Below are positions 12,996-43,855 of a stretch of 64,000 nt of DNA, piece by piece. Source of the DNA: Mobula hypostoma (lineage: Eukaryota); assembly GCF_963921235.1 (NCBI RefSeq), contig NC_086108.1, positions 90,460,001 through 90,524,000 of the forward strand, read 5' to 3'. Position 1 is the stretch's first letter. Each line of letters begins with the position of its first letter. Under the pieces are notes generated by a model. The model worked only from the letters and a program-made list of their open reading frames with translations. It was not told the origin of the DNA and did not search any database. The position numbers were made by a program, and so were the translations under genes.

Positions 12996-13388
12996 GTAAG
13001 GCTCTGAAAACTTCTACAGATGTACTGCAGAGAGCACTCTCACTGGCTGCTTCAACGTCTGGTATGGAGGTTGCTACTGCAGAGAGTTGTAAAGTTAGTC
13101 AGCTCCACCATGGGCATGAGCCTCCATAGTATCCAAAACACCTTCAAGCAGTGATGCCTCAGAAAGACGGTGTCTGTCATTAAGAACTTCCACCACCCAG
13201 AACATGCACTCTTCTCATTTACCATCAGGATGGAGGTACATAAGCCTTCATAAACATTTCTGAATGGACATTGAATCCATGAGCACTACCTCACTATGTT
13301 TTTATACCTGTCTTTTTGCACTACTTATTGAATTTAACTACTTGATATATACTTAGTGTAATTCCTAGTTTTTCTCTAGATTATCATG

Positions 13389-13929
13389 GTTTTCGGTCGG
13401 GCGCCGGGCGTTCGGAGAGATTTGGCAGGGGGTGGGCGCCCGGCACTCAGCCGGGGCCCATGGTCGAGTGGTCGGCGACTTGGGCCGGCTCCCCCACCGG
13501 ACTTAGTCTGGTGAGGAGGGTGTGAGGACACCCAGCAGGACTGAAAAAAAACAAGACCTGACAAAAGGCGGATGAGTTCCTTGTGAGCCAACGGCCATCT
13601 TCCGTGGAAGAGATTAAAGCCTCACCACGTATTTACGAATCTTATGCTATGCACTTAGTTAGAAGAGAGATGATGAACTTGGGTGCTGCGCCGTGTGCCT
13701 GGACCTGCCCAAGGCCTCCACCTAAGGAAGGGCCGAGCTCGAAGAAGCGGCCGCGGCTGGAGGCCGACACGGCCTCGGGCTCGAGTTCGGCGGGGGCGGC
13801 GGCGGGCGGTGCCAAGGCAGCCAGCGAGAACAAACTGGAGGAGAGGCTGCACTCGGTGCTGTCGCAAGATCGAAGAAGATGGAGGTGCATAGTGGCCAAC
13901 CCTGGATTTGGGACGGCACCCACTGACTG
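13389..13929 (+). mobile_element. Chimeric CpG-rich retro-insertion (unknown GC-rich head + SINE-like segment + CYHR1 fragments + RTE-like tail)
   Basis: Interrupts the Rex 3' UTR (..attatcatg | tattgc..) with ATCATG duplicated at 13383-13388 and 13930-13935; ends QDRRRWRCIVANPG + (actg)n. Confidence 0.85.
13684..13862 (+). pseudogene. CYHR1: Captured fragments of CYHR1/ZFTRAF1 (cysteine and histidine-rich protein 1) N-terminal coding sequence, order permuted
   Basis: 13684-13719 = [12 protein letters not shown]; 13721-13861 = PKEGPSSKKRPRLEA..AAAGG..KLEERLHSVL; vertebrate CYHR1 as I recall it reads ..KKRLR..[29 protein letters not shown]. Confidence 0.88.
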
Positions 13930-14926
13930 ATCATGTATTGCGTTGTACTGCTGCCACAAAGTTAACAAATTTTGTAACATACTCTGGTGATATTAAACCT
14001 GATTTTGATGTTGATTTATTGAGTATGCCTGCAAGAAAATGAATCTCAGGACTGTATATGGTGACTGTATTTTGAACTTTGAACTTAATTTCTCCTTTCC
14101 TAAACAAAGGTCCAATGATAGCTGTGCATCCGTCATCTGGCACCAGGTAGTCACAGTTGAAAGAATAACATTAGCCCTTCCATCCCCTGTGACTCTAAGT
14201 AGGCTTTGATCTATTTTATTTCCAGTTAGTGATTTACACTATTTACAAAAAGCTTTATGTATGTTTATCTAAAATTCCCCTTCAACTAAAATATTGCATT
14301 GTCCCTTCCCCATCAATTATTAAGACCGATGCAAACCTTCCCTGTGTTTTGCCTTATCTACCCTATATGCTGTCCAAGACTTGGAAGCCTCCAGTGTTAA
14401 TGGACTTTTTATTGTGTGGGCTATTTTGCTTGCACCTTCACTATCCATACGGTGAGTATTTCACGCTGCACTGAGGCTGGTTTATTCAGTCCTCCTGCTG
14501 TGTGACTGTTCAATGAAAATGGCCTTTCTCTAATTGAGGATGCTTACTCTGGACCTGTCTTTGACTTTGCTGTCCAATGCTACAGTTAATTAAATTTGCT
14601 TCACTACCTTTCCCACTGTTATTCTTTACACCTATTCCCTAAGTTTTCATTCAATGTAATCATCTCTTCTTGGTCTTGCATAGATTCTTCTTGTTTTCCT
14701 TTTCTGAATTTTTGAGGCTTCACCAATACTGGCTTTTTGTGCTTAAAAGTGATTATCAAAGTAAGATTATAAACTTTCATTAAAAGATTTAAGTAAGCCT
14801 ACTGCCTCTTGCTCATTAATTAGTTACCTCTTTTATCACTTCACTCCTAAGTTAGTAAAGTGAACCGAGCTAGGTTTTAGACAGATTTTTGTCTCTTTAA
14901 CCACCCACTTAATCTGAACACAATTT

Positions 14927-40844: not shown

Positions 40845-43077
40845 ATTATCGTCCGGTAGCACTCACATCTACAGTGATGAAATGCTTTGAGAGGTTGGTC
40901 ATGACTAGAATGAAATTGGGGCTGTTGTGGATAGTGTGGAGGGCTGTCAGAGGTTACAGCGAGATAGGATGCAAAACTAGGCTGAGAAGTGGCAGATGGA
41001 GTTCAATCCAAATAAGTGTGAGGTGGTTCATTTTGGTAGGTCAAATATGATGGCAGAATATAGTATTAATGGTAAGACTCTTGGCAGTGTGGAGGATCAG
41101 AGGCATCTTGGGGTCCAAGTCCATAGGACATGCAAAGCTGCTGTGCAGGTTGACTCTATGGTTAAGAAAGCATATGGTGCATTGGCCTTCATCAATCATG
41201 AGATTGAATTTAGGAGCCAAGCGGTAATGTTGCAGCTATGTAGGACCCAGGTCAGACTCCACTTGGAGTACTGTGCTCAGTTCTGGTTGCTTCATTACAG
41301 GAAGGATGTGGAAACCATAGAAAGTGTGCAGAGGAGATTTACGAGGATGTTGCTTGGATTGGGGAGCATGCCTTATGTGAATAGGTTGAGTGAACTCGGC
41401 CTTTTTTCCTTGGAGCGATGGAAGATGAGAGGTGACCTGATAGACGTGTATAAGATGTTGAGAGGCATTAATCCTGTGGATAGTCAGAGGCTTTTTGCCA
41501 GGGCTAAAGTGGCTAGCACTAGAGGGCACAACTTTGTGGTGCTTGGAAGTAGATACAGAGGAGATGTCAGGGGTAAGTTTTTTATGCACAGAGTGGTGAG
41601 TGCGTGGAATAGGCTGCCAGCGATGGTGGTGGAGGTGGATACGATAGGATCTTTAAAGAGGCTCCTGGACAGGTACATGGAGCGTAGAAAAATAGAGGTC
41701 TATGGGTAGCCCTGGGTAATTTTTAAGGTAAAGACATGTTCGGCACAGCTGTGTGGGCTGAAGGGCCTGTATTGTGCTGTAGGTTTTCTATGTTTCTGAG
41801 GACCTGGACCCATTGCATTTTGCCTATCGCCACAAAAGGTCAACAGTAGATGCAATCTCAATGGCTCTTCACATGGCTTTAGACCACATAGACAACACAA
41901 ACACTTTCGTCAGGATGCTGTTCATCAACTTTTACTCAGCATTAAACACCATCTACAATACTAATTGATAAATTACAGAACCTGGGCTTCTGTACCTCCC
42001 TCTCCTATTGGATCCTCGACTTCCAAAGCGGAAGACCACAATTTGTGCGGATTGGTGAAAATATCTTCCCTTGCTAACAATCAACACTGATGCACCTCAG
42101 AGGTGTGTACTTAGCCCACTGCTCTACTCTCTATACACCCATGACTATGTGGCTGAGCATAGCTGTAACACTATCTATAAATTTGCTGATGATACAACCA
42201 TAGTTGGTAGGATCTCAGATGGAGACAAGAGGGCATACAGGAGCGAGGTACACCAACTAGTGGAGTGGTGTCGCAGCAACAGCCTTGTACTCAACATCAG
42301 CAAGATGAAAGAGCTGATTGTGGGCTTCCGGAAGGGTAAGATGAAGGAACACATACCAATCCTCACAGAGGGATCAGAAGTGGAGAGAGTGAGCAGTTTC
42401 AAGTTCCTGGGTGTCAAGATCTCTGAGGACCTAACCTGGTCCCAACAAATCAATGCAACTATAAAGAAGGCAAGACGGTGACTGCACTTCATTAGGAGTT
42501 TAAAGAGATTTGGTATGTCAACAAAAACACGCAAAAAACTTCTATAGATGTACTGTGGAGAGTATTCTGACAGGCTGCATCACCATCTGGTATGTGGGAG
42601 GGGGCTACTGCACAGGACTGAGAGGAGCTGCAGAGGGTGTAAATTTAGTCAGCTCCATCTTGGGTACTAGCCTACAAAATACCCAGGACACCTTCAAGGA
42701 GTGGTGTCTCAGAACGGTAGTGTCCATTATTAAGGAACTCTAGCACCTAGGGCATGTCCTTTCCTACAGAAGGTACAGAAGCCTGAAAGCACACACTCAG
42801 CGATTCAGGAACAACTTCTTTCCCTCTGCCATCCGATTCCTAAGTGGATATTGAACCCTTAGAGACTACCTCACTTTTTTAATATATAGTATTTCTGTTT
42901 TTTGCACAATTTTGATCTATTTAATGTACGAAAAATGTAATTGATTTAGATATTTATTTATTATTATTATTTTATTTTGTTTTTTACTTCTATATTATGT
43001 ATTGCATTGTACTGCTGCTGCTAAGTTAACAAATTTCACGTCACATGCCGGTGATGTTAAACCTGGTTCTGATTCTG
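40845..43077 (+). mobile_element. 5'-truncated Rex1/Babar LINE split by CR1
   Basis: YRPVALTSTVMKCFERLV | DLDPL.FAYR..APQ.CVLSPLLYSLYTHD..KFADDTTIVG; (gattct)n tail. Confidence 0.92.
40910..41797 (+). mobile_element. 5'-truncated CR1 LINE
   Basis: ORF 40996-41709 MEFNPNKCEVVHFGR..HLEYCAQFW..; tail ttctatgtttct. Confidence 0.93.
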
Positions 43078-43392
43078 ATGTGAAGCCTTGGGAGCAGGTA
43101 GTGAATGATCGTATGAGCAGCTGGTGCATATCACAAGTCCTGGTTATGCGACCACTGACGCCAGCCAGACCAGCTCTGAAGAGTATTGATAATGGCTGGG
43201 GTCACCCGTCTTGTAAAGACAGTGCCCAGAAGAAGGCAATGGCAAACCACTTCACTTCTGTAGAAAATGTTGCCAAGAACAATCACGGTCATGGTGTTCA
43301 TCCACATAATATAACACAGCACAAAACAACAAACAAAGAACCAAAAATGAAAAGTGAAAGCTACAGAGTGACTGTGGAGCCTTTTAAACTGA

Positions 43393-43855
43393 TGAATCAG
43401 AATCAGAACCACAATCAGGTTTCTTATCATTGTGAAATTTGTTAACTTAGCAGCAGCAGTTCAATGCAATACGTAATATAGAAGTGAAATAAATAAATCA
43501 ATTACGGTATATGTATATTGAATACATTAAAAATCGTGCAAAGACAGAAGTAATATATATTAGAAATGTGAGGTAGTGTTCACGGGTTCACTGTCTGTTT
43601 AGGAATTGGAAGGCAGAGGGGAAGAAGCTGTTCCTGAATTGCTGAGTGTGTGCCTTCAGGCTTCTGTACCTCCTTCCTGATGGTAACAGTGAGAAAAGGA
43701 CATGCCCTGGGTGCTGGGGTCCTTAATAATGGATGCTGCCTTTCTGAGACACCACTCCTTGAAGATGTCCTGGGTACTTTGTAGGCTAGTACCCAAGATG
43801 GAGCTGACTAAATTTACAACCCTCTGCAGCTTCTTTCGGTCCTGTCCAGTAGCAT
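43393..43855 (-). mobile_element. Rex1/Babar 3' end
   Basis: (aatcag)n tail; reverse complement of 42620-42860. Confidence 0.85.

Follow-up and report, generated by a model that had tools for sequence, protein, structure and literature searches.

The insert at positions 13389–13929 of the window (the whole 64,000-nt stretch of DNA analysed here) belongs, as one copy among many, to a non-autonomous retrotransposon family with a 572-nt consensus in which two ends of an RTE-type LINE enclose a piece of the host gene CYHR1. Our preferred reading, with a probability of roughly 0.8, is that of a bipartite RTE family which carries a permuted piece of CYHR1 exon 1 and whose fold-back hairpin was likely hyper-edited by ADAR before the founder copy integrated. 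The preliminary description had assigned the insert to at least four unrelated templates. These reduce to two sources, a LINE and CYHR1, since the head, the segment described as SINE-like and the tail all derive from a single ~3.35-kb LINE encoding an APE endonuclease and a reverse transcriptase (RT).

The hexamer ATCATG is duplicated on either side of the insert (13383–13388 and 13930–13935; all features are given on the forward strand). When the flanks are joined without the insert, they align unbroken with the uninterrupted tail of the host repeat at 42993–43079, so that the host repeat resumes exactly, as had been described. This repeat is presumably a Rex element, a label taken over from the preliminary description; a Pfam scan of one open stretch of it matched no family. 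Two tails of the host repeat form an inverted pair in the window (42768–42955 and 43487–43674, 531 nt between them), and another short repeat (~43080–43320) lies between them. The start of the insert had to be revised in part. The target site duplication (TSD) is real, but the CATG at the end of its left copy belongs to the element consensus as well, i.e. there is a 4-nt microhomology at the 5′ end of the window copy, and the 5′ end of the family lies 27 nt further upstream. The window copy lacks these first 27 nt of the consensus and is thus 5′-truncated. Among the contigs from four runs that covered the left flank, none showed the empty ATCATG site, which points neither way.

The abundance of CpG against a depleted background was confirmed. 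The observed/expected ratio was 0.92 in the head, 0.84 in the CYHR1 part and between 0.58 and 0.92 over the modules, compared with 0.25 for the whole window. That the event is recent holds only in part: the window copy differs from the consensus by 4.3% (2.5% without CpG sites), and 40 copies from contig C1 differ from it by 6.0% (3.0% outside CpG).

The genome from which the window was taken contains hundreds of copies of the element. Searching it with the insert returned 2285 candidates, and the 40 that were scored (the window copy and 39 others, 90–93% identical) were all full-length. The 572-nt consensus was built from 87 distinct copies. An exact 23-nt pattern across the junction of CYHR1 and tail gave 521 matches and its control none; as 22 of 30 copies in one set and 34 of 47 in another, both obtained by other means, contained this pattern, the family comprises an estimated ~700 copies. 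A rough ceiling is set by the 923 candidates obtained with the CYHR1 part as query. The corresponding exact pattern for the parent tail gave 168 matches, i.e. the composite outnumbers its parent about 3:1 at the tail. A pattern from the LINE 5′ part gave 386 matches, with the base of the composite in 96 of 100 among the matches listed, and all 30 loci sampled from them carried CYHR1 sequence, which indicates a single lineage. Contigs from four of four runs (organisms A–D, A possibly being the species of the window) cross the hairpin and the junction of a 98-nt deletion, so that this head is not private to one genome. In all four runs contig depth, when summed, was ~10–50 times as great over the RTE 5′ part (13459–13656) as over the hairpin, and many contigs over this interval lacked the inserted T at 13482. 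A diverged repeat may share the RTE 5′ part; the exact-pattern search of the own genome returned none.

Mobility was assessed on 40 copies taken in genome order on contig C1 from the first 46 junction matches listed. Ten of them share the full 5′ end, 20 begin inside the first 57 nt and four begin past nt 326. TSDs of at least 7 nt (7–14 nt) flank 21 of the 40, compared with 0.5 for shuffled pairs. Family copies are thus dispersed, with TSDs of their own, a common 3′ end and variable 5′ truncation. Among family copies L125, L136, L143, L187 and L176, internal deletions affect the hairpin or the sequence that follows it, and one copy is split by ~350 nt. In the 47 target sites with TSD among 97 family copies, T reached 57–68% at positions −13 to −11 and 68% at −1. 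This matches the pattern given for RTE-mobilised elements in the available part of PMC6007223, namely a T stretch ~10 nt ahead of a TSD whose first base is T. This insertion-site pattern and the identity of the tail to that of the parent support the earlier suggestion that priming took place on the 3′ end of an RTE. Divergence of the parent outside CpG was 2.2% (16 copies, chosen by likeness to one copy), and its similarity to the 3.0% of the composite suggests that family and parent were active around the same time.

A survey of the tail at 30 loci found seven that run upstream into an RT reading frame, 22 composites and one locus cut at the junction. Three of 20 fetched LINE copies were near-full-length parents, and these hold the 5′ parts of the composite. 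The parent has one long ORF with endonuclease and RT (Pfam: Exo_endo_phos and RVT_1), with its stop codon placed within the (ACTG)n tail. The nearest intact relatives of this ORF were 1010-aa APE and RT proteins at 65% (P0121, P0122), and no named vertebrate protein was present among its 13 matches. RTE-clade elements are characterized in the accessible part of PMC1291365 by one long APE and RT ORF and a 3′ UTR that is very short and composed of tri- to pentamer repeats. The parent would belong to this type, an assignment based on its structure and on the insertion pattern of the family copies and not on a tree. A guessed join of the 5′ part to the start of the endonuclease gave no matches; the real parent has ~60 extra codons there.

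The parent 5′ consensus was made from 19 of 30 fetched copies and may not equal the exact donor subfamily. Compared with it, the composite keeps the first segment, lacks the following 98 nt and continues with 210 parent nt, which differ by deletions of 7 and 10 nt and by four substitutions, one of which is an artefact of aligning a run of As. This RTE 5′ region with the start of the ORF occupies 13489–13684. About 2.9 kb of the parent middle is absent, and the last 68 nt of the family consensus are identical to the parent. In the window the RTE 3′ end lies at 13863–13929 and consists of the last ORF codons, the stop and (ACTG)n, in agreement with the earlier view of the ~68-nt end as an RTE ORF end and tail. 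By contrast, the segment described as a SINE with its own gagatgatga tail aligns to the 5′ region and ORF start of the LINE and is thus LINE 5′ sequence; the apparent tail is the junction of the 10-nt deletion together with one substitution private to a few copies. A classical SINE with a tRNA, 5S, 7SL or snRNA head was rejected, as no Rfam family came near its gathering score and the head aligns to the RTE. Nor was there an abundant separate SINE with this segment in the own genome, all 30 sampled loci being composite. The composite SINE family that had been offered as an alternative was therefore correct as to a mobile family with gene fragments, but the element has no SINE head and is a bipartite RTE derivative.

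The first ~100 nt of the parent are themselves ~80% similar to the antisense of the 5′ UTR CpG island of DAXX (own genome, C12, ~2012000–2012100; L117:1501–1595), the gene being a single one whose Daxx domains are encoded 4 kb further on (L200:4978–6249). A>G was the commonest difference in this comparison but was not dominant. The sequence was probably transferred from host to LINE. A search of the ESM Atlas with the DAXX-like exon gave no usable match. Two GC-rich heads, of ~170 nt and of 35–90 nt, lie upstream, each common to one group of parents (L088, L090, L103, L099, L100; and L089, L092, L105, L109). Five of the 17 parent copies examined carry 5′ inversions (L096, L099, L100, L109, L110), and these ends resemble twin-priming products of L1. 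The DAXX-like end, the varied heads and the inversions indicate that pick-up of CpG-island sequence and 5′ inversion recur in the parent lineage. In one lone internally deleted parent (L092) the 5′ part is joined to the 3′ end of the ORF at other breakpoints, and CYHR1 sequence is absent.

The only non-LINE source consists of 178 contiguous nt of CYHR1 coding exon 1, and the two CYHR1 pieces of the preliminary description were confirmed by their match to this exon. Piece A (13685–13724, 40 nt) is identical to the gene at 39 of 40 positions and piece B (13725–13862, 138 nt) at 136 of 138, and the pieces abut exactly. In the element A precedes B, whereas in the gene B directly precedes A, i.e. 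the order is a circular permutation with 0 bases lost and 0 repeated at the break. The junction predicted for gene order, B followed by A, had one exact match genome-wide. The piece is in sense orientation and entirely exonic. Piece A ends 4 nt before the splice donor of exon 1, which excludes splicing as the capture route. At the junctions of the CYHR1 piece there was neither microhomology nor a splice signal pointing to one particular mechanism of capture. The source is a CpG-island coding exon, onto which the N-termini of five chondrichthyan CYHR1 proteins map, and the next exon, ~91 kb on, is that of CYHR1/ZFTRAF1, with 99% identity to skate and sawfish proteins. The first intron of the gene accordingly measures ~91 kb (L081 to L192; own genome C5, 228.09–228.00 Mb). 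A homolog search with the 46 aa encoded by piece B returned none at E ≤ 1.

The first 57 nt of the element correspond, in reverse complement, to the deleted parent segment and fold back on the sequence that follows. In the window the 5′ arm, which duplicates the deleted RTE 5′ end in inverted form, covers 13385–13414 (consensus 28–57). The extreme 5′ segment of the RTE (13413–13458), which in the parent is similar to the DAXX 5′ UTR antisense, forms the loop and the first half of the 3′ arm; the second half (13459–13488) is joined to it over the 98-nt deletion. When folded, the 131-nt head has 56 pairs, including 15 G·U pairs, with −107.6 kcal/mol as compared with −125.3 for the unedited form. 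The gccgggcg/cgcccggc stem noted earlier is present, as a small part of this 56-pair hairpin. The fold-back head, its A>G cluster and the permuted order of the CYHR1 pieces go beyond the preliminary description.

Compared with the parent, the loop and 3′ arm show 12 A>G and 1 A>T and have gained one T, the cluster continuing into the second half of the arm. In the 5′ arm, the departures from the sequence expected there are 3 A>G, 1 T>G and 1 G>A. Of the 18 substitutions in the head, 15 are thus A>G when read on the sense strand, and they occur in both arms. This exceeds the 10% share of A>G in parent copies (binomial 7e-13), and 15 of 23 hairpin As were changed, whereas 0 of 103 were changed elsewhere in the element (Fisher p 5e-14). 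No A>G was found in the 210 nt of adjoining RTE sequence, in the tail or in the exon. As following G were changed at 5 of 11 sites and other As at 10 of 11 (p 0.06 two-sided, 0.03 one-sided), so that avoidance of a 5′ G is suggestive. A>G clusters in long duplexes with 5′-G avoidance are named as a hallmark of ADAR in the available part of PMC2873906. One paired site is ambiguous, with A>T in one arm and T>G in the other. G is the consensus at all changed sites across the family, so the edits predate amplification. The remaining stem A opposite C is G in 10 of 57 copies, compared with 1.6% at As outside the hairpin, which represents either the ancestral state or repeated editing. The clustering of A>G on the sense strand within a long duplex corresponds to an ADAR hyper-editing signature that would have been fixed in the founder and then amplified.

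The following course of events is proposed. An RTE transcript or insertion would have lost ~2.9 kb of its middle and taken up the CYHR1 piece. RT primed at the RTE tail may have jumped end-to-end onto fragment B, then onto fragment A and back to the RTE 5′ part, A and B being two adjoining products of one cut in one CYHR1 RNA. Serial RT jumps of this kind are the most likely route of capture, with about even chances of being the actual one. Non-LTR RTs can copy physically separate templates in one run, according to the accessible part of PMC8857657, where it is also pointed out, as a caution, that RNA ligation comes first in the formation of L1 chimeras. The template jumping of the preliminary description is thus displaced from the window locus but would be retained as a founder event that took place once, elsewhere. 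The 98-nt deletion and the 5′ fold-back would then have produced a perfect ~55-bp inverted repeat. Editing of the hairpin transcript from A to I in both arms, followed by reverse transcription that fixed 15 G·U pairs, is very probable. Finally, a single edited founder lineage may have spread in trans through the parent APE and RT recognising the retained tail; the defined 5′ end and the CpG-island content suggest a putative internal Pol II promoter. The order of these steps is inferred, as an unedited precursor with the deletion and a CYHR1-free sister formed after the 10-nt deletion both gave 0 matches in exact-pattern searches of the own genome, which could miss old copies.

Other histories of the composite were weighed against this one. 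A one-off chimera of four unrelated templates, made by several jumps at the window locus, was the main reading of the preliminary description and would account for the single TSD that brackets all modules. It is refuted by the junction test proposed there and can practically be dismissed, since every junction is common to hundreds of copies, as the 521 exact matches of CYHR1 and tail showed, and three of the modules are one LINE. Sequential nested insertion of independent elements is very improbable. A 7-nt repeat does seem to bracket the CYHR1 part in the window copy, but it arose there by CpG decay and is absent from the consensus; moreover, neither tails nor TSDs occur inside the composite, the junction lacks 2.9 kb of the parent, and exact-pattern searches and sampled loci of the own genome gave no partial forms. 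The capture of the CYHR1 piece has a more serious competitor, which we hold as a tentative second choice: the piece may have arrived as a circle of 178 nt, opened at a different position and used to patch a break in the RTE. Such a circle could have been nucleosome-sized extrachromosomal DNA from a CpG island or a small circular RNA. It would explain why the permutation is exact, with nothing lost or repeated at the break, and both the length of 178 nt and the origin from a CpG-island exon fit microDNA. On the other hand, the closing joint has neither microhomology nor splice signals, and the piece is in sense and wholly exonic, as an RNA template would be.

The A>G cluster might also have arisen without ADAR, by RT error, by GC-biased conversion or by C>T decay of an ancestral G-C hairpin. 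In the parent copies A>G already makes up 10% of substitutions, and one of the 15 sites, at which the DAXX source has G too, could be ancestral. An origin of this kind is nevertheless unlikely, because the parent consensus has A at the changed sites, the partner arm keeps T, and the change is on the same strand in both arms. Moreover, runs of four and three As were converted completely while three As of the loop were left unchanged, and none of the 103 As outside the hairpin was altered. Editing by ADAR accounts for this distribution and is retained as the preferred explanation.

A chimeric reading frame of 85–86 codons (13670–13930) starts in RTE sequence, reads piece A out of frame and piece B in frame, and finishes in the RTE end. 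At least 80 codons of it are kept in 49 of 75 copies. Pfam gave one weak match only (E 0.33). The share of non-synonymous changes in the 85-codon frame was 0.588 compared with 0.63 expected (nominal p 0.005; the counts share history). Selection on this frame was not accepted, as the counts share history and another reading frame deviates as much in the opposite direction. The frame appears chance-like, with no clear sign of selection. The element most likely has no host function and is a parasite of the RTE.

The family resembles several known systems in part. Bipartite non-autonomous RTEs and RTE-mobilised SINEs such as Bov-A, RTESINE1/2, WALLSI3 and RTE-N2_Lch, as presented in the available part of Kojima 2018 (PMC5786205), likewise combine an RTE 5′ part with the extreme 3′ end and its microsatellite tail, after internal deletion and with spread in trans. 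The present body is not LINE-only, since it includes 178 nt of CYHR1, and its fold-back A>G hairpin head also sets it apart from the elements in that part of the source. The AviRTE SINEs BuceSINE and ManaSINE2 have a GC-rich non-tRNA head on a bipartite RTE body (PMC4844689, accessible part); in contrast to what is given there, the present head is traced to the inverted, DAXX CpG-island-like 5′ end of the LINE, and the gene cargo is internal. Amplification of a GC-rich host first exon by a non-autonomous subfamily is shared with SVA_F1 (MAST2 exon 1) and pt_SVA_D6 (STK40 exon 1), whose exons, according to the available part of PMC6139936, were spliced to the 5′ end and reached 84–94 copies with L1 machinery. 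The CYHR1 piece, on the contrary, is internal, permuted, 4 nt short of the donor and present in >500 copies spread by RTE machinery.

A fusion of a LINE 3′ end with a cellular RNA in sense, as in LINE-1/RNA chimeras such as U6/L1, is a likely origin of the founder; such chimeras arise by template switch or RNA ligation and are mostly separate events in the accessible part of PMC13174262, whereas here one product went back to the 5′ part of the LINE and gave rise to a family. Clusters of a single substitution type fixed in genomic retroelements are also known from APOBEC G>A editing (PMC2873906, available part). Those described there are dead single copies, while the present cluster is A>G in a dsRNA hairpin and belongs to the founder of a successful family. 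A 2016 review, in its accessible part, called the role of ADAR in how Alu subfamilies evolved undetermined (PMC4982230). In titles and abstract openings of the literature we found no account of the family or of an ADAR-edited founder; the family may be catalogued in Repbase or Dfam, which lay outside this search. Single-copy precedents are the A>G-hypermutated avian retroviral proviruses.

The success of the composite over its parent may stem from its short length alone. A bolder reading is that it profited from the edited hairpin or from CpG-rich promoter activity. We regard it as doubtful that editing licensed the element, through a G·U hairpin with few editable As that escaped dsRNA surveillance, so that it outran its parent, and that this RTE lineage routinely harvests CpG-island first exons. 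If true, one round of germline hyper-editing would have made a founder from a perfect 55-bp duplex, and the harvest of DAXX, CYHR1 and further heads would be a retrotransposon counterpart of Pack-type gene capture. In practice, copies of the family will mimic CYHR1 in annotation and read mapping. RTE machinery has spread a piece of a host coding exon to >500 sites, and its exact circular permutation is a clue to how RT picks up cellular sequence. The family would represent a clean fossil of A-to-I editing returned to germline DNA and amplified several hundredfold, and both the parent LINE and the partner arm allow its unedited state to be recovered.
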